Origin: an uncultured Nitrososphaeraceae archaeon
Lineage (GTDB): Archaea; Thermoproteota; Nitrososphaeria; Nitrososphaerales; Nitrososphaeraceae
Length of the DNA: 64,000 nucleotides
Direction: 5' to 3'
Assembly: GCA_963729045.1 (NCBI GenBank)
Contig: CAVSMN010000011.1
Span: 32,001-96,000, forward strand
Below are positions 5,799 through 27,361 of this stretch, one piece after another. The position numbers and the translations under genes are program-made. How positions within the stretch are numbered: the first letter of the stretch is position 1; the number at the start of each line of letters is the position of its first letter. The notes beneath the pieces were generated by a model. It searched no databases and was not told the origin of the DNA. It saw only the letters and a program-made list of their open reading frames with translations.

Positions 5799-8700
5799 CT
5801 AAAGTATGTAAATTGAAATTTCTCTCCCGTCCAATTCAATCTTTTTAGATCCTTTATCTTCATCGGTTTTCTCTGAAAATTCTATTTTGTTTACACGTAC
5901 CAAATTCTGCAGATCTATTTCGAAATCTTGTAATTTCGTAATTTCTTCAGAAGAAAAATTGGAAATATATGCTGTATCCAATATTTGGGTAGGAGAATAT
6001 CCTAATTCTTTTCGAAGTTGCTGAATGTTTCGAGCCAAATCCTTAACTAAACCTTTTATTATTAATTCCTCGTTTCTAGAAGTATTTAACAGGAGAATTA
6101 CATTTTCTTTTTCTCCTACCACATAACCGCTAGTTGGGACAAACGCAAAATCCATGTCGGTAATAGTCAAATCTATAGATTTATTTGGCAAATAATCGAA
6201 ATGATAAAACCCCTCCACTTGGAGCTGTTTGAGGATCTGAATCTTATCTTCACTTTCAAATTTGTCAATTAATAAGCCAATATCACCTTTAACGATCTTG
6301 GCAACACTTTTTCTATTTATGGTAATTGATGGTATTATTGGAGCTTTAAAGTTCATTAAACTTGCTATTTTTTCAACAATAGTATTTGCTTTAATCTCTT
6401 TAACCTCAATATTTTCAATGTTCATCTGTTCTTTTAACAATTCTTTTATCCCTCCCACATTTAGAAATTCAATCTCATCAACGTAAATCAATGCGGATTC
6501 CAGTGGCCACCTCCTTTTCAACTTGTGTCGGTTTCTCAATGAAAATGATAATGATGATATCCCCTTGATCGTATCAAATGCTGTTTCAACTTCTTTATTA
6601 GCTATCAGGGCTAATTCTTCACCCTCAGGCAGATTTTCCATCAGAATTGAATCAAACTGCTTAAAACATGATTGGTAAAGGTATTCGGTAAAAAATGGAC
6701 ATATGGGATGAAGTATTATATCAATAGTCAATAGACAGCGAGATAGAATCCTATATACTGTAAATCGTCTATTCTGGTTATCCAGATCATCGCTCCAAAG
6801 ATCATATCTTATCAGAGGGACATAGGTTTGACTCAATGAATTTATTATAAAGTCTTCAACCGCATGAGAAGCTTCATGAAATCTGCAGTTCCCTAACAGT
6901 TGAGAGGATTCGTCGATTAGGCCTTTTAGCTTTGTTAAATCCAAATATCCTGACTCCTCAGGGAAAGGTCGTTAGCCTTCCAACCCGACTTTGAGTACCA
7001 ATCTCCGAATTTGAATTGATCATAGACAGCATTTTGTTGATAATAGATATGCAAGAAAAAAAGTGTGCTTAAAACCTGATGAGGTCTAGAGGACATTTCT
7101 TTAATGTCAAAATTCAAAGGCTCTATTGGAGAAGATTTCCAAATAAAGTATAATCTCACCAGGTCCACAGGATTGTCAATTAAGAGGGATTTTGCATCAA
7201 CGACATTTCCCAAACTCTTGCTCATCTTGTTTCCTTTATCATCCAAAACATGACCTGTGAACAAGAATGATTGAAATGGAGATTGAGGGCTTTTTTTGAA
7301 GATAACATTTAACATCAACAAAGTGTATGCCCAACCTCGTGTTTGGTCAATCCCCTCTGTCAAAAATTCAGCTGGAATCAGTGTATCGTATTCTGCATCA
7401 GAAAGTGATGAATAAGGGGCACTTCCGCTGTTATGCCATGTATCCAAAACAAATAATTCTCTTTTCATTTTATTTTGACATTTGGGACAATTAATTAAAA
7501 CTTCATCTATCCAGGGCCTGTGCAATTCAAAGTTTTCTCCATCCGGCAAATATGAGGCTCTCGCAACAATTGATTTTCTGGAAAATAACCCTTCTTTAAA
7601 AGAACATTTAGTACATTTCCAAATTGGAAGCGGTGTACCCCATACCCGTTCCCTCGATATGCACCAAGGAACCTTTTCCCTAATGATCTCGAGAAACCTA
7701 TTTTTTGGTTGCTCGTAAAAATAATTTACTTTTGAGGCAGCGACAATGGGCTGGTCTCCTAAAATATCAATCATGTAGAAATACTCCTTCCTTGCCAACC
7801 AAACTATTTTGTGATGAGATCGCCAACATGTAGGATATTTATGAGTCAGTTTGCTGATCTTTACTACCGAATTTGTCAATTGCATATCATTAACGACAAT
7901 TGGGTCCACATCTCTGACGAATTGATTTTTATATTTGCCAGCATCTTTGGTAAAGAATACCTTATCATCAATGGGTACAAAGATTGGTATTTTTCGTCTA
8001 GTTGCAATTTCAAAATCCTCTTCTCCATTTGCCGGTGATAAGTGGACAATTCCGCTACCAGTAGTAACATCCACAAAATTTTCTGCGACCACAAAATGGA
8101 TTTTTCCTTGGGATGCGAGATCATTCAAGCCGGGTATGTTTTCTATGATTGGATGAATGTAATACTGGCCTTCTAATTTTATGCCCAAGAATGTATCAAC
8201 CACCTCATACTTTTCAATCTTCAGGTCGGCCATCAATTCCTTAACTCTATTTTCGGAAACAATCCATTTTTCATTATTGCCTTTAAAATCGACCTTTAAG
8301 GTTAGATATCGAGCCTCAGGGTTTACACCCACCAATTCGTCGGTAACTAGAGTAAAAGGCATTGTAGTCCATACGACTAGGAAAGTTTCTGATCCTTTTA
8401 GTTTTACCTTATAATAGAATGAAGGATCTTCTACCTGCTCATAACTTTGATTGATTTCAGCATTACTTAACGATGTCTGACAAGAAGGACAATATGCTAC
8501 AACTCTAAACCATTCCTTCAATATCCCCTCCTCGAATGCCTTGCCAATGTATTTCCATTCTCTTTCAATATATTGATCAGTATAAGTCCAATAACCCTTA
8601 TCATAATCAAATGACATTCCGATCAAATTATCCACTTGTACCCATTTTTTGTTATATTCAAGAATTAATTTTTTACAAGTTTCGACAATCTTATTGATTC

Positions 8701-20447: not shown

Positions 20448-22397
20448 TTGAGTTATCACGAAAGTAGCAACTAATATTTTGATTTTAATCATTCCATTAA
20501 TCATAGGATCAATAGTTATTACCTCCATCCTTTCACTCCAAAATATTTCTGGAGTTCGAGCAAAGTTTTATGATATTTATGAATTGTCTGGCATCCAACT
20601 AATGAACAAGCTCTCTGTTGAGGTAAATGAAATTGCAAAAGATCTTAGTAGTTTGTCAACCCACCCTATATTAGCTAATTCTACCACTCCCATAAACGAC
20701 CAAATTAGCTTACTTCAAAGATAGATTAATTTTAGTAACTCAGAATATCTAGCTGTATCTGTTTATGATAGAAATGGCACTGCTATCATTGATACATCAG
20801 ACGGATCTCCTGGTGGAAATGCTTTGCAAGAAGAATTTTTCAGACAAGCATTAACAGGAGGAACTTATTTTGATAAGAATCCGGATGAAATCGCATTCAA
20901 TCAAACAGGATTTCATTTTTCGGCTCCCATCTATGATTCTAATAAAGTCATAAAAAGTATAATGGATCTTGAGGTTTCAATAAGTTTTATAGACAATGTA
21001 TTCAATAACACACTCTTTCACGACGATATTGAAAATAGTTTGCTGAACTTTACTTCCAGACTAATTCATAGTGACGGCTCAGTGATATACACAGCAAGCC
21101 AGCAAAATGAGTCCCCAGGATATGAATGGTCAACAGAATTTGAACTTCCCTCTTCCTGGAAATCCAATCGCAGAATATGAAAAAAGGAAATCTCAGGACT
21201 CTATTTGATTGAGGTTCCTGAAACTGAAAGTGCGAAGGGTTATCGATCTGATGGGAATTGGACACTCTTACTTGAGGGAAATTTATCTCCAGTTATGAGT
21301 GATTATAACAAAACAGTAAACGGTTTCTTGATTTCTTCAACATTGATTTTATTAATCGCAATTGTAGTTACTATCATTGCTGTAAAGAAAATTACATCTC
21401 CAATTACTCATTTGAAGAACTCAGCTTTAGAATTAAGTAAAGGCAATTTTGGCAAGGAAATAATGGTTGAGGGATCAAATGAGGTAAAAGATCTTTCTAT
21501 CAGCCTTGAGGCAATGAGAAGAAATATCGAGAATTCTAAAAAGAATTTGATTCGTAAGGTTAGAGAAAGGACAAAGAGACCTTGAACGGGCGAATGAAGA
21601 GTTGAGAACAAAAGAATTTCAAGTTAACTCAATTAATAACGAATTGAGGATATCAAATAGAGCCAAGGAAGAATTTCTTTCAATGATAAGTCACGAACTA
21701 AAGACTCCCATAACCCCCATGAAGTTGAATATCGAAATGATGCAAAAAGGAAATAAATCAGAAAATCTAAACGAATTCCAAAGGAAGACACTCACCATTA
21801 TGCATAGGAACATCTTAAAGATAGAGACCATCATAGATGACATTTTTACTGTGTATAAGTTAGAATTGAATAGTTTTCCCATCAACAAGGAGATGACCAA
21901 TATTGTAGAATTAGTGGAGAACAACATGTTAGGATTATCCCCATTAATGAAAGATAAAAATATCAGGTTTATTTCAATAGTTAATGCAACTGGGAGTGTA
22001 TTTTGCGACCCGGTAAGAATTAGTCAAGTATTGTTCAACTTGGTAAATAATGCAGTTGATCACGTCCCTGAGCAAGGTGGGGAAATTACCATTCGAGTCG
22101 ATGAAGAAGATGTAACGTACAAGTAAAATGAGACTTTAATGATAATGTCAATAAAGCATCACAGATCAGTCATATTTACCGTCGAAGATAATGGAATTGG
22201 GATACAACCAGAAAATATGGAAGGACTATTTAAGAAATTTTACCAAATAGATACGGGCCTTAGCAAGAAAATTTGGTGGAACTGGATTAGGGTTAGCAAT
22301 ATGTAAAGGTATAATAGAATCTCACGGAGGCAAAATTTGGATCGATTCTTCATATCGGAATGGCGTCTCATTCAAGTTTTCCCTTGATTCGTTATGA
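20448..22397 (+). pseudogene. sensor histidine kinase (Cache-HAMP-HisKA-HATPase), disrupted
   Basis: HAMP ITSPITHL..EVKDL, SHELKTP, NLVNNA, DNGIGI, GGTGLGLAI; in-frame stops at 20722 and 22124 plus several frameshifts. Confidence 0.85.
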
Positions 22398-22445
22398 CAC
22401 CGAGAAAGTATTAAAATGAAAAATATGAAATATTCCTTGTTGACT

Positions 22446-22789
22446 ATGAAAGTATTGACAATTAATGACAATGAAAGTATAACCGAAGCTGTGAAGGATT
22501 TTTTTGAATTTGAAAATATTGATGCAAAACAGTGAATCAAGGTCGGTTAGGGCTTTCAAAAACTGAAAATAAAAAATTTGACCTTATATTACTCGACGTA
22601 GCCAATCCAAGATACAGTGGTATAGATATACTCAATGAACTCAAAAGAGAACGAATTGAAAATCAGAATATAATTATTTTTAGAGCATCAGTCTTCAAAT
22701 CAGAACAGATTGATGATTTTTTGGAAATCGGAGCCAAGGAAGTTTTGACAAAGCCTATCTCATTGGACAAATTAGAATACATTAAGTAA
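22446..22789 (+). pseudogene. response regulator receiver, frameshifted and degenerate
   Basis: MKVLTINDNESI..[fs]..FDLILLDVANPRYSG..LTKPIS. Confidence 0.75.
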
Positions 22790-24013: not shown

Positions 24014-24433
24014 TTAATTGAGTTTGGATTTAATTAGCTCAAATGCTTTTTCGGCTTGGTCTTTCTTGGGTAATTGAACAAAAAAAATATTACTGCTTTT
24101 TGATTCATGTGGTGCAATTCCTAACATTCCAGCAGTTGAAAGAAATCTAAAAAAATCGATACTTTCATTTGCGAATAATAAGAAATCAAATTCAAGATCG
24201 GTATTAAGAAAATTTATATTCAAATTTACAAAGACATGGTGTCCGTCATCATAAATATTTAAGTTAGTATCAATCAAGTTAGGCTTGCCATATGATTTAT
24301 TAATAATATTTTCGAATTGAACATTTTCGATGAGTAAGCAGGGCACTTTAATCCCATTATAGTCAATCACAGAAAAACCTAATTTATGAACATTGGCTAG
24401 GAAATCTTCAAGGGAATTCAAGTTTTTATTCAA
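24014..24433 (-). CDS. hypothetical protein, co-oriented downstream of the ATPase
   Basis: 139-aa ORF starting 76 nt after the ATPase stop. Confidence 0.7.
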   Translation of the reverse strand: MNKNLNSLEDFLANVHKLGFSVIDYNGIKVPCLLIENVQFENIINKSYGKPNLIDTNLNIYDDGHHVFVNLNINFLNTDLEFDFLLFANESIDFFRFLSTAGMLGIAPHESKSSNIFFVQLPKKDQAEKAFELIKSKLN

Positions 24434-24509
24434 GTCTACACAACAACTTGAAAATTAATAAAATATAAATTAGATCATGGTTACAAGCAAAAGACTAGTA
24501 GGTCGCGGG

Positions 24510-26138
24510 TCAGCAGATTTGGATAGATTTTGCGAGCAGTATCGCCTTTTGTGGATCCTCTGATTTGATTTCGTCACTATCGTATTTCTTGCTAAAATAG
24601 AGCAAATCAGCCAGTTTCCATTTGTCAATGGTTACTAGGGTAGTGCCATTTTTTTTTACGTTTGTAATATTAGTAGTCAATATTACCAATTTATCAACTA
24701 CCGAGTTCTTTTTAGTGCTTTTAACAATCTTGTCAAAGTTCTTGTTCTTATCAGAATCGACTGCGATCGATATACCCACCTTTTTTCCCATTTGATCGTT
24801 ATATATTGCATCTAAATAATCGGTATCGATCTTTTCATCATATTTTTTTACAGTTCCCAATTCATCAAAATAACTTATCAAATTTCTGACAGCCTCTTTT
24901 ACATTCGATTCTACAATATCCTTATCAACTGATATTTTTCTCATTTTAATAAAATCTGAGATCGGTATTCCCATGATACTTCCTCTCAAACGCAACCCGG
25001 GATAGACATTTTTGATCGTTTCTTCTATTGATTGTTCGTCTATATTTGAAGAATTCTTCTTCAAAGACATTTCGAAGGCATGATATAAGACATTTAAGAT
25101 AGATCTTATGTTCCGAAAGTCTGGAAATTCATCATAAATTATTTTTATTTTTGATGAGATATCTTTCCTTTCTGAAGATGAAAGTTCATTGTTAAAATGC
25201 AACACATATTGAAGAACAATGCTATTTATTTCATCGAAAGAATTGGATCCTGCCAAATCAATTTTATAATTTGCTTTTTCTAGACGATCGAAAAGTGATG
25301 GATTGATCTTGGAAATATCAGCATACAAGGAAGGGGTAGTTACTATCATAAACAAGGCATACGGGACGTGAGAATTAATTAATCCCTTCAAATAATCCAA
25401 TGAATTTAAGTTGGTGTCAAACTCATCGATCTGAAAAATAGTAATTTTTTTAAACAATTTATAGTTGATCATGGCCAAGTTGGTTAAGACCATTGTAAGA
25501 TTTTCAAATGTTTTTAAATCGGAATAGTTTAATGTGCCTGTCTTGATAATTTCAGTAATTATATGTGTCTCTATTTTAGTAAAATCATTTGACATTAATT
25601 CAAATAAATGTTCGTAAGATATTCTCATTTTTCTTTCACCCATTTGTTCTATCTTGTCAGAAATTGAATTCCCATTGAGTGAATCAAAAAACCCGTATTT
25701 TACTATCTTCTTTACTAACTTTGGATTCTGTACATAACTATCTTTCAGGTAATCAATTAGCTTTACCTTTATGGAGTCATAGTATTCTTTTCCAAATCCG
25801 CTTACAATAGAATGAAAGAAATTATCGATTTCCCTGGGTTGAACTTGAGTTAGGTCGACGTATGAAATAATTGATTTATCATTGACTTCAGACAAAGTCC
25901 TCATATGCAGCGTTAAATGTGTTTTACCTGATCCCACATCTTGGATTACAGAGATTATCTTGAAAAGATCTTCATTTAGAGGCTCCGTACTATTTAATTT
26001 CAGGTTCAATTCGTTCAAGCAATCCTTAATTGAATTTAACGCTGCAATGTGCCTTTTCCCCCCAAGAATATTGGCACTGGATAATGTGGGTGTTGGACTA
26101 CTAGGAAAAGGATTGACGGTTAGATTGTATGGTGCCAT
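24510..26138 (-). CDS. uncharacterised AAA+/P-loop ATPase with C-terminal alpha/beta tail
   Basis: YNLTVNPF, Walker A QDVGSGKTH, Walker B FQIDEFD, SLFDRL, NIRSIL; ATG overlaps the upstream stop (TGATG) and has GAGGTG upstream. Confidence 0.8.
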   Translation of the reverse strand: MAPYNLTVNPFPSSPTPTLSSANILGGKRHIAALNSIKDCLNELNLKLNSTEPLNEDLFKIISVIQDVGSGKTHLTLHMRTLSEVNDKSIISYVDLTQVQPREIDNFFHSIVSGFGKEYYDSIKVKLIDYLKDSYVQNPKLVKKIVKYGFFDSLNGNSISDKIEQMGERKMRISYEHLFELMSNDFTKIETHIITEIIKTGTLNYSDLKTFENLTMVLTNLAMINYKLFKKITIFQIDEFDTNLNSLDYLKGLINSHVPYALFMIVTTPSLYADISKINPSLFDRLEKANYKIDLAGSNSFDEINSIVLQYVLHFNNELSSSERKDISSKIKIIYDEFPDFRNIRSILNVLYHAFEMSLKKNSSNIDEQSIEETIKNVYPGLRLRGSIMGIPISDFIKMRKISVDKDIVESNVKEAVRNLISYFDELGTVKKYDEKIDTDYLDAIYNDQMGKKVGISIAVDSDKNKNFDKIVKSTKKNSVVDKLVILTTNITNVKKNGTTLVTIDKWKLADLLYFSKKYDSDEIKSEDPQKAILLAKSIQIC

Positions 26139-26815
26139 CAAATACACCTCACAAATCCATGGACTATTCCTCTTAACACGACTCCTTCATAACCTCCAGA
26201 CGATAATTCATATTTTTCTGGATACAATTCAATGAGTTCACTTACAAGGCTGTAAAATTCATTATTGGAAAGATCGCAGGATTCACACAACTCGTCTTTA
26301 ACCGAAGAGAGTTCTACCCAACCAATTGAAGTCGAACGATTTCCTATTACTCTGTCAAAGTGTTCTTTAAATGTATCAATAGATATTTGATTATTATCAT
26401 AATCAATGTTAGTGGGATCAACTTTTATATTATTTATTTTATCTTCGATTCTGTTAAAGGAATTCTTAACTTCTACTAATTCGCCATCAATTTTTTCTAC
26501 ATATTTAAATATGCTATCAGAGTAGTTGTTTAGTTTCTTTTGAATACCTAAAATAGAATCGTATAGATATTTGAATTTTATATCTGATGAGAGTAAATGA
26601 TCTAGATAATATTCCTTTCCCCAGCAATAAACATATGTTCCTTTTTTAGATATGCATATTTTATCCTGTGCCGTTAGTTCATTCAAGGTATCCTCAAAAT
26701 TATCCTCAGGATATTTTTTCTTTAATTCAGATTTCTTTACTCCTGCAGATCCAAAGGAATTAATATCATTATAGATCATATCTAAATCGGACATACTAGC
26801 AAAATAAAAAAACAA
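26138..26815 (-). CDS. predicted wHTH - coiled coil - wHTH protein, partner of the ATPase
   Basis: GVKKSELKKKY..LNEL..KICISKKG; central heptads; GWVELSSVKDEL..EFYSLV..YELSSGG. Confidence 0.7.
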   Translation of the reverse strand: MFFYFASMSDLDMIYNDINSFGSAGVKKSELKKKYPEDNFEDTLNELTAQDKICISKKGTYVYCWGKEYYLDHLLSSDIKFKYLYDSILGIQKKLNNYSDSIFKYVEKIDGELVEVKNSFNRIEDKINNIKVDPTNIDYDNNQISIDTFKEHFDRVIGNRSTSIGWVELSSVKDELCESCDLSNNEFYSLVSELIELYPEKYELSSGGYEGVVLRGIVHGFVRCI

Positions 26816-27046
26816 GATAAAAAAAAGATAGTCAATAAAAAATAATTATGCTGTAAAAAAAAATAAACAAATATAAGAATTAATACATCTGAGTGAGATC
26901 CATGGGAATGATGATACATTTGTCTGATAAAATAATGATGATAGCACTAGGGTATCTGACCTAAATTACAAATATCTGGACCGTTTGATACCGGATTTAT
27001 TATATACATTAATAAATATTCTTTTGACAATAGTTCTACAGTTAAG

Positions 27047-27361
27047 TTGTTCAATAATGATAAAAGATATGAAGATACCGTCGGTATAGATGAAATAACT
27101 AAAAGAACTAATAGATTGCTCGATGAATTTAAGGAGAATTATATAAAGAACAATAAAAATGATTTTATCAATGATGCAATAACAAATATGGTTGTTTGTT
27201 GTAAAACATACGAAAAAATTTTCGCAGGCTTCATAATTGTATCTCAAAGAAATAACATGCCACAAGAATTAATTGAAGGATTTGTAAAATGGTCTACCGG
27301 TCAACTAGAAGACCTCAAGGAAAAAATTCAAGAAATAGATAAAAAAAGAGATATGCGATGA
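27047..27361 (+). CDS. hypothetical helical protein
   Basis: 104-aa ORF divergent from the ATPase operon. Confidence 0.55.
   Translation: MFNNDKRYEDTVGIDEITKRTNRLLDEFKENYIKNNKNDFINDAITNMVVCCKTYEKIFAGFIIVSQRNNMPQELIEGFVKWSTGQLEDLKEKIQEIDKKRDMR

Follow-up and report, generated by a model that had tools for sequence, protein, structure and literature searches.

The locus examined here raises the question of what two tightly coupled genes of a soil archaeon, one for a small protein with two predicted winged helices and the other for an ATPase, do together; the archaeon is an ammonia oxidiser. The window is the whole stretch of 64,000 nucleotides analysed, from an uncultured member of the Nitrososphaeraceae, and the locus comprises three ORFs on its minus strand: gene A (26138..26794, a 218-aa adaptor), gene B (24510..26138 with the stop codon counted, a 542-aa P-loop ATPase) and ORF C (24014..24433, a 139-aa conserved protein). 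The initial annotation had described them as co-oriented and intact in a frameshift-rich assembly; the first point held, and the second held locally. Internal stops are absent from the three ORFs and, in a local look, the adjoining histidine kinase is spread over at least five ORFs (20479-22306), whereas in two congeners a single ORF encodes it, 636 aa long in one and 639 aa in the other. The starts were revised: gene A begins with the ATG at 26794, replacing a 225-aa ORF with a TTG start, and its homologues span 213-222 aa; gene B begins with the ATG at 26138-26136 and has homologues of 541-545 aa.

The A/B junction (26136..26149, minus strand) is formed by GAGGTG at 26149-26144, a 5-nt spacer and the TGATG at 26136-26140, in which the TGA of gene A (26140-26138) and the ATG of gene B have one base in common; the overlap and the SD-like site had been noticed at the outset. 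A close junction with a GTGAGG-like site is repeated in the relatives. Junctions were compared in 26 sources (the window and 25 loci), and the pair is conserved and tightly coupled, with A directly 5' of B in 25 of them. The A stop lies from -17 to +1 nt of the B start in 21/26 sources as computed by script, the genes are adjacent or overlapping in four more, and L016 is the only source lacking A. A-like ORFs also overlap or abut B-like ones in the distant Thermoproteota loci L025, L026, L028, L029 and L030, and in L027.

In four soil studies RNA libraries yielded contigs over A and B, DNA carry-over being possible and a single transcript unproven, and the junction is crossed by X1 record 8 (26077-26418) and X5 record 22 (26078-26311). 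Gaps in the cover within single runs are not evidence of silence at the locus. Scans for sigma-70 promoters (21 sites, 20.8 expected) and for terminators (0 terminator-like sites) are uninformative for an archaeon, and the inverted-repeat search 5' of gene A gave just short A+T-rich pairs.

The product of gene A is modelled as a winged helix (residues 1-59), a long helix (60-123) whose length varies among relatives, a second winged helix (139-207) and a conserved C-terminal tail. This model agrees with the bivalent partner with a coiled coil that had been predicted from the letters. Foldseek of the model against PDB and BFVD returned generic winged helices, none at E<=0.001; among the rows of low probability were chains of Wadjet JetABC. 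No Pfam family was common to the 13 adaptor sequences scanned, and among the matches listed the A records are named 'hypothetical protein', with the single exception of one 'archaellum component FlaC'.

Gene B encodes an AAA+ module (24999..26138, about residues 1-380) and a C-terminal domain. In the 24-sequence alignment, whose residue numbers follow a 543-aa translation (the true protein being minus 1), all the motifs first listed for the ATPase were found and are conserved. The N-terminal strand P-Y-x-L-x-x-N-P-F is kept up to its N-P in at least 90% of the sequences. In the Walker A (25920-25934) G70, G72, K73 and T74 are invariant; it is deviant in its first glycine alone, here Q, and is canonical in distant members. 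In the Walker B (25422-25427) D239 is invariant and E240 is kept in at least 90%, as is R286 of the DRL motif (25284-25286). The lid helices carry an R-x-I-R-S sensor-2-like motif. All these features are on the minus strand. The model (pLDDT 86.3, pTM 0.77) contains a helical insert after strand 2, at about residues 105-230, and the structural search, which took in residues 1-395, places the modelled AAA+ module in the ORC/Cdc6 clade. The protein has 1317 homologues at E<=0.001, the best 94% identical, and 83 representatives in 1.84 billion clusters at 50% identity; among the matches listed all are 'hypothetical' except one 'ATP-binding protein'. PDB sequences searched with profiles of B and of its C-terminal domain yielded P-loop or chance matches alone. 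A match of PF25657 (Rota_VP6) to one homologue was under the cut-off and judged spurious.

The C-terminal domain of B (24513..24959, minus strand, about residues 394-542) had been overlooked in the initial annotation. It is modelled in the order helix-strand-strand-helix-strand, a restriction-endonuclease fold of the PD-(D/E)xK, Mrr-like type, with a degenerate catalytic motif. The aspartate is retained (24810-24812), and the acidic residue and lysine of the (D/E)xK are replaced, by S-I-A in the window and by S-I-A, A-V-V or M-V-I across the window-clade sequences aligned (6/6 of the 13-sequence alignment A4, on which the loss of the motif rests). The intact D...(D/E)xK is found in the distant members L027, L028, L029 and L030. 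Pfam identified Mrr_cat in 2/13 members of A4 (best E 9.4e-7), Mrr_cat_2 in 1/13 (2.1e-5) and NA-iREase1 in 1/13 (0.0042), and zero families in the window's own domain. Window-clade and distant profiles of the domain align by hhalign at 98.5% (E 3.5e-15, 133 columns), and it is among the distant members that Mrr_cat matches. By these alignments the window clade has kept the predicted endonuclease fold and lost the catalytic motif.

The relatives of this pair lead to the Sulfolobales. In its available text, PMC11065993 (2024) describes a Sulfolobales operon of an ATPase-nuclease and a wHTH protein as hypothetically antiviral and proposes a type II toxin-antitoxin or abortive-infection role (OLD/PARIS-like). 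There arCOG03737 is a 'GntR-family regulator' and arCOG03738 a 'P-loop ATPase fused to PD-DExK nuclease'. By profile comparison the window's pair is homologous to the Sulfolobales-type pair, both for the adaptor (hhalign of A2 against A8, 97.8%, E 9.9e-13) and for the ATPase (A1 against the L030 ATPase, 99.1%, E 1.7e-18, 400 columns). The claim that the locus matches no named system is not supported, the AAA+ module being of the ORC/Cdc6 clade by structure and the pair being homologous to the SiRe_2374/SiRe_2373-type operon (arCOG03737/03738) by a link that runs via the Sulfolobales-type locus L030 and two viral proteins. These are stand-alone homologues of the adaptor winged helix, ARV3 gp05 (tblastn E 5e-12) and ATV2 AON96442 (5e-11), and phrog_38850 matches A both in L030 (E 1.4e-21) and in the window (E 0.0019). 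The same source, as far as available, lists viral homologues in ARV3 and ATV2 and states that the viral proteins retain the N-terminal winged helix; here, on the contrary, they align to the adaptor's C-terminal one (query residues 128-193 of 194). Among 50,697 records of phages and archaeal viruses no B-like ATPase was detected. Literature searches, by accessions for the N. gargensis orthologue and by keyword for the Nitrososphaerota pair, found no paper.

Distribution was surveyed in 301 genomes of the order, each at least 80% complete. B was identified in 87/89 genomes of the window's family (f1), 7/8 of f4, 10/10 of f9 and 20/89 of f13, and A in 88/89, 6/8, 10/10 and 19/89, respectively; two genomes, G259 and G264, are unpublished, and without them the f1 and f13 counts each fall by one. 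About 69/89 genomes of f13 are without the pair, and it is missing from f10, where 58 genomes gave none or one weak P-loop match. Since many genomes of the order do without it, their way of life does not depend on the pair. Most genomes have one match. In a quick ML tree f1, f4, f9 and f13 each form one side of a branch, and the four share a long stem (length 1.28, support 100).

The neighbours are housekeeping genes, as the first reading of the locus had noted; in the window they are a DsbA-like thioredoxin, a UbiA prenyltransferase, CDC48 and EF-1beta. Housekeeping neighbourhoods were seen in 13/13 loci scanned, with one PIN-domain gene, and Pfam identified no integrase, transposase, restriction-modification or CRISPR genes in their 80 flanking ORFs. 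With its single copy, family-wise tree and housekeeping setting, the pair behaves in the window clade as a vertical, non-mobile element.

The explanation preferred here, held as somewhat probable, is that A-B is this order's branch of an old Thermoproteota module, a double-wHTH protein with an ORC-clade ATPase fused to a PD-(D/E)xK fold, working as an ATP-driven switch bound to DNA. On sequence grounds the window clade appears to hold a real and new, nuclease-dead variant of the published Sulfolobales-type module, and its function we infer as follows. A would dimerise via its long helix and bind DNA through its N-terminal MarR-like winged helix, and its conserved C-terminal winged helix and tail may dock on B. 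ORC/Cdc6, MuB, TnsC and BrxC assemble on DNA in the ATP state, and B in the same state would do likewise. Its catalytically dead endonuclease-fold domain would then serve as a surface for sensing or binding DNA or nucleotides, with no cutting, and the pair as a sensor or switch that sits on DNA and is driven by ATP. Such a pair would derive from an ATPase-nuclease module and be fixed in the chromosome, with regulation or genome surveillance as its most likely outlet. From the earlier idea of an adaptor and ATPase acting on DNA, the pair, its coupling and the winged-helix model survive, the action on DNA staying conditional; the third gene and the want of a named relative do not.

A bolder reading, offered tentatively as a possibility, is that the pair of soil ammonia oxidisers is a domesticated form of an ancestral immune or toxin module, retained by almost all Nitrososphaeraceae genomes, in which a nuclease-dead, ORC-like switch and its double winged-helix adaptor sense DNA damage or foreign DNA and control transcription or replication. 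If true, archaeal chromosomes would employ the ORC/Cdc6 engine for a second purpose besides initiation, and the same module would be the target that viruses of other Thermoproteota attack by means of truncated adaptor copies.

It is unlikely that the pair is still antiviral, that is, an abortive-infection or toxin-antitoxin-like system with the ATPase-nuclease as toxin and the wHTH protein as antitoxin or repressor, which viruses counter with truncated wHTH copies. The homology to the Sulfolobales-type pair argues for it, although that precedent is itself a published hypothesis, and so do the stand-alone viral adaptor homologues, ARV3 gp05 being listed as the predicted anti-defence gene ADG.51 in the available text of PMC11065993; for B, however, no homologue was seen in the viral records searched. 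Several distant members have the intact D...(D/E)xK motif, whereas 6/6 window-clade sequences lack its acidic and lysine residues, so the clade has no obvious toxin. BrxC and BrxD are among the nearest structural and feature neighbours of B, and distant relatives of B match PADLOC families weakly (mad8, best E 1.6e-7; BrxD, 1.5e-4), but PADLOC is blank for the window's three proteins, A, B and C together matching 0 families of PADLOC-DB 2.0 at E<=1. No PADLOC, Pfam or NCBIfam family reached threshold for the window proteins, a result in line with the first reading. The presence in 87/89 genomes of f1 and the family-wise tree are unlike typical patchy defence genes, and the neighbourhoods are housekeeping at all 13 loci with their one PIN gene. 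A simple 'defence island' reading is questioned by this setting and by the span of the module over several Thermoproteota lineages.

The first reading, taken as a chromosome machine with a housekeeping role, is quite improbable; its bivalent binder would mark the sites on which the ATPase works, in segregation, organisation, replication licensing or cell-cycle control. The ORC/Cdc6-type AAA+ fold of B, the core-gene surroundings, the single copy and the family grouping on the tree are consistent with it. Archaeal Orc1/Cdc6 homologues with roles outside replication are also known, and according to the available text of PMC10123103, Orf8 of virus SNJ2 transduces DNA-damage signals in concert with wHTH proteins. 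On the other side, a bona fide Orc1/Cdc6 gene lies elsewhere in the genome and B falls short of TIGR02928, and descent from an ATPase-nuclease fusion points to surveillance or repair more than to segregation. In two large families of the order most genomes gave no match to the pair, a pattern that speaks against a core role in the cell cycle.

ORF C was first taken as the third gene of the module. It matched nothing in Pfam, NCBIfam, PADLOC, PHROG or PDB sequences, its 79 homologues are all 'hypothetical', and the B-C gap is 76 nt with an A+T-rich box. That A, B and C form one three-component functional system is extremely improbable, largely refuted by phyletic patterns: C lies on the same strand 3' of B within 55-1900 nt in 11/16 loci compared (including, L037 aside, all nine f1/f13 loci) and an RNA-library contig crosses the B-C gap (X5 record 18, 24399-24650), but C is found in 181/301 genomes against 136/301 for B, in 87/89 against just 20/89 in f13, and in 0/10 of f9 and 0/10 of f12, where B is 10/10, counts from a search with one protein, so that distant copies of C could be missed. 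In six f4 genomes C and A-B are on different contigs, and in genus g22 C is 5' of A on the opposite strand. To judge from these patterns, ORF C is an adjoining, independent gene outside the A-B module.

The window's family takes in major soil nitrifiers, and B of this functionally unnamed pair is in 87/89 of its sampled genomes. The Sulfolobales link gives these soil-archaeal genes a testable ancestry, and Sulfolobales genetics with the viruses ARV3 and ATV2 puts the question within experimental reach. The versions with active and dead motifs are a natural pair for probing the fusion of an ORC-like ATPase to an endonuclease fold.

Among known systems the closest is the Sulfolobales operon, with which the pair shares the order and coupling of the genes (the ATPase follows immediately on a small double-wHTH protein), the ATPase N-terminal half, with best structural matches 1w5t and 2v1u, and homologous C-terminal domains. 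The window clade differs from it in lacking the acidic and lysine nuclease residues, in its deviant first Walker A position and long stem branch, in the long, variable coiled coil of its adaptor, and in that no virus-borne copy was found for it.

Orc1/Cdc6 initiators share with B an AAA+ module of the same clade, the insert after strand 2, the D-R-L arginine and the sensor-2-like lid helices. Unlike them, B has helices and an endonuclease-fold domain instead of the C-terminal DNA-binding winged helix, the winged helices being on a separate protein, gene A. Cdc6_C has no match in B, whose C-terminus is the alpha/beta domain homologous to Mrr-type domains. B was rejected as the initiator itself: the TIGR02928 gene is elsewhere in the genome (G000 C9, 374.5 bits), and B's locus is absent from the four matches of the own-genome search.

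BrxC and BrxD of BREX are also placed in the ORC/Cdc6 clade by the available text of PMC12839542, which gives them an arginine finger and an insert that follows strand 2. Protein-atlas neighbours of B carry PF10923, a lead toward these proteins. The identification was rejected, PF10923 being seen in 2/24 members under the cut-off (best 18.2 against 22.2 bits); B has about 540 aa and BrxC about 1200 aa, and Pfam matches of the neighbours in the window and 13 other loci include no PglZ or PglX.

Finally, the ATPase_2/DUF234, AAA_14/DUF4143 and NACHT-associated iREase fusions resemble B in joining a P-loop switch to a domain of endonuclease fold, in many cases a catalytically dead one, and the B family matches some of them weakly, under threshold (ATPase_2 in 4/24, NA-iREase1 in 1/13 and DUF4143 in 1/13). 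Inactive endonuclease-fold domains are thought to be nucleotide sensors, according to the available text of PMC12839542. Unlike these fusions, B has a dedicated double-wHTH partner encoded 5' of it.

Three co-oriented intact ORFs, as read in the initial annotation, are present at 24014-26815 on the minus strand, in a source genome of 2.85 Mb and 22 contigs. Gene A, the double winged-helix adaptor (26138-26794, minus strand), comprises 218 aa, and gene B, the ATPase with a C-terminal endonuclease-fold domain (24510-26138, minus strand), comprises 542 aa; both begin with ATG, the starts being fixed by homologue lengths and sequence. ORF C, their small downstream neighbour (24014-24433, minus strand), comprises 139 aa. 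The proposed TGATG overlap with an SD-like GAGGTG was also recovered: A's TGA and B's ATG have one base in common and the GAGGTG site lies 5 nt upstream at the junction. No family at threshold was identified for A, B or C in Pfam, NCBIfam and PADLOC, B giving a weak Pfam match to AAA_22 (E 0.018). Named relatives of the window's proteins belong to Candidatus Nitrosocosmicus (about 79% identity) and Nitrososphaera (about 44%; N. gargensis AFU59226.1).

Two further features adjoin the locus. A probable C/D box sRNA is located at 26903-26964 (plus strand), between gene A and a divergent ORF at 27047, with two AUGAUGA and two CUGA boxes in about 57 nt; the segment is near-invariant in four congeners and its flanks vary. 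The ten Rfam matches here were all sub-threshold and all to C/D box families, archaeal sR5, sR9 and snoPyro_CD among them, the best being SNORD20 (27.4 bits against a gathering score of 43, E 0.0086). The second is a histidine kinase at 20479-22789 (plus strand), broken into a run of at least five ORFs with HisKA and HATPase_c pieces beside a response regulator shortened to 85 aa. The kinase is one ORF in two congeners (636 or 639 aa), one of them with an adjoining 122-aa regulator ORF; the splits are frameshifts or assembly errors adjoining the intact A-B-C genes.

The order-wide survey comprised 301 genomes at least 80% complete, the window's own counted in; two of the genomes counted (G259 and G264) are unpublished, and without them the counts for f13 and for f1, the window's own family, are each one lower. 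The B profile was identified in 136 genomes (87 of 89 in f1, 7 of 8 in f4, 10 of 10 in f9 and in f12, 20 of 89 in f13), with a single weak P-loop match among the 58 genomes of f10 and no match in the remaining families of the order. The A profile was present in 124 (88 of 89 in f1, 6 of 8 in f4, 10 of 10 in f9, 0 of 10 in f12, 19 of 89 in f13). The pair is kept together. By script, the distance from A's stop to B's start is between -17 and +1 nt in 21 of 26 sources (the window plus 25 retrieved loci); in four more loci tblastn or a listing of ORFs shows the two genes side by side or overlapping, and a GTGAGG-like site precedes B's start in most of these loci. Family f12, with the ATPase in all ten genomes and the adaptor found in none, is a natural adaptor-less form of the module; at its locus L016 (G035:C11, 3681-5351) the ORF upstream of B is an opposite-strand membrane protein. 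One genome of the genus (G008) carries two full A-B-C sets on contigs C141 and C355 (L003 and L017), their B copies 94% and 45% identical to the window's; because the second set looks Nitrososphaera-type, the bin is probably mixed rather than holding a true paralogue.

The three-gene module of the initial annotation was not upheld, the phyletic pattern of ORF C differing from that of A-B. ORF C was found in 181 of the 301 genomes, including 87 of 89 in f13, most of them without A and B; f9 and f12 yielded no copy, and six f4 genomes have it on another contig than A-B. In f1 and in the pair-bearing f13 genomes it frequently lies close to B, an arrangement suggestive of an independent gene whose synteny has been retained. 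ORF C is a bystander to the pair. It is a conserved protein (139-147 aa), its 79 listed homologues being all "hypothetical", and no library tried gave a match.

The predicted wHTH-coiled-coil-wHTH architecture of A agrees with its model (pLDDT 79.6), which has winged helices at 1-59 and 139-207 and a long helix at 60-123, with a low-confidence linker before the second winged helix and the tail unmodelled; the modelled parts have likeness at common-fold level. The length of the middle helix differs between relatives, and one f13 locus has almost none of it. In f9 the A-proteins have 407-491 codons in all, about double length, the addition being in the middle region (e.g. L041, G032:C1, about 7300-8537). 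Conservation is highest in the C-terminal domain and tail (at least 90% in 20 sequences); for the tail it is at the protein level, because one base alone of it overlaps B's coding sequence.

Conservation in B was read from 24 diverse full-length members, with alignment and model numbered on a 543-aa translation having one N-terminal residue more than the true protein. The Walker A is deviant as first described: the window clade has Q for the first glycine, distant members are canonical, and G70, G72, K73 and T74 are invariant. D239 of the Walker B is invariant and E240 is conserved in at least 90%; R286 (D-R-L motif) and an N-terminal P-Y-x-L-x-x-N-P motif are further conserved, and E304, D444 and D512 are invariant. 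B is not Orc1/Cdc6, as had been stated, and a replication initiator was rejected: TIGR02928 misses B and matches one gene of the genome, on contig C9 (374.5 bits).

Residues 394-542 or so of B are modelled as helix, strands, helix, strand, strand, helix. Among 13 aligned loci scanned individually against Pfam, this domain matched Mrr_cat in two (best E 9.4e-7), Mrr_cat_2 in one (2.1e-5) and NA-iREase1 in one (0.0042); the window's own domain gave no Pfam match. A profile of six window-clade sequences matched one of seven distant sequences with 98.5% probability (E 3.5e-15, 133 columns), the clade's invariant aspartate aligning with the D of the distant P-D motif. Downstream of this aspartate, the (D/E)xK motif is D-V-K in L027 and L028, E-V-K in L029 and D-I-K in L030; its position reads N-V-K in L016, M-I-K in L025, and S-I-A, A-V-V or M-V-I in the window clade. 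As judged from these alignments, the clade keeps the endonuclease fold but neither the acidic residue nor the lysine of the motif remains, from which we infer that its B would be unable to cut DNA.

That the searches did not find the pair in the 58 genomes of f10, nor in about 69 of the 89 in f13, argues against an essential role. For the window clade the evidence tends to disfavour a classical defence or toxin system, because the nuclease motif is dead, PADLOC is blank, the pair is mostly single-copy, the tree is family-wise and the neighbours are non-defence. The majority of genomes carry a single copy. In a quick maximum-likelihood tree built from 26 B sequences, with long-branched distant rows, f1, f4, f9 and f13 each occupy one side of a branch (supports 92-100), together behind a long, fully supported stem (length 1.28), a pattern consistent with vertical descent following a burst of change. 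Of the 80 flanking ORFs scanned at 13 loci, some of these distant, those that could be identified are metabolic, translational or membrane genes, with one PIN domain and no integrase, transposase, restriction-modification or CRISPR gene; beyond the genus, A-B alone, often with C, remain together. A HAD-family hydrolase gene abuts B's 3' end in L049 (7314-7952, f4) and L041 (10165-10854, f9), and a family-2 glycosyltransferase lies within a few kb in four loci, recurrences that may be old synteny. RNA-library contigs from four soil studies map to A, B and C, two of them crossing the A/B junction; they are weak evidence of expression, DNA carry-over being possible in such libraries. The pair is real, conserved and expressed-looking.

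Distant B-like genes were identified in a phylum-level search (301 genomes, E<=1e-5) in other Thermoproteota families: f24 (13 of 14), f36 (3 of 10), f31 (2 of 5), f22 (1 of 1) and f43 (3 of 8), some matches spanning the ATPase core only. Each of the six distant loci fetched has an A-like ORF overlapping or adjoining the B-like one, and the C-terminal winged helix of these proteins aligns with that of the window's A. The A-like protein of one such locus, L030, matched phrog_38850 (E 1.4e-21; window's A, E 0.0019) and, by tblastn against 50,697 viral records, Acidianus rod-shaped virus 3 gp05 (101 aa, E 5e-12) and an Acidianus two-tailed virus 2 protein (124 aa, E 5e-11). Both matches span its last 66 residues, and the viral match to the C-terminal wHTH takes in its glycine-rich hairpin and the tail; the same records gave no match for the B-like ATPase.

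The identity and architecture of A-B are well supported, and the following mechanism is plausible. A would dimerise via its long helix, its N-terminal winged helices binding DNA and its C-terminal winged helix and tail holding B. By analogy with its structural relatives, B in the ATP state might load or oligomerise on DNA, the dead endonuclease-fold domain offering a surface that binds or senses DNA or nucleotides. Truncated adaptor copies of Sulfolobales viruses may compete for the ATPase, which is consistent with an immune and with a hijacked host function alike. An ORC/Cdc6 homologue acting as a signal transducer with wHTH partners is described for a haloarchaeal virus in PMC10123103.

The closest known system is that of the Sulfolobales. 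The section of PMC11065993 on these proteins places those of ARV3 and ATV2 in a predicted anti-defence family, ADG.51, homologous to SiRe_2374, a double-wHTH protein in an operon with SiRe_2373, a fusion of AAA ATPase and PD-DExK nuclease (arCOG03737 next to arCOG03738). It describes this pair as conserved in most Sulfolobales and hypothesises that it forms a system of abortive-infection or TA-like type, akin to OLD and PARIS. The ADG.51 proteins keep the N-terminal wHTH according to that section, whereas the C-terminal one was matched in the present alignments. The A-B pair is a new, nuclease-dead variant of this module, which the literature records only as a pair of arCOGs and as a hypothesis.
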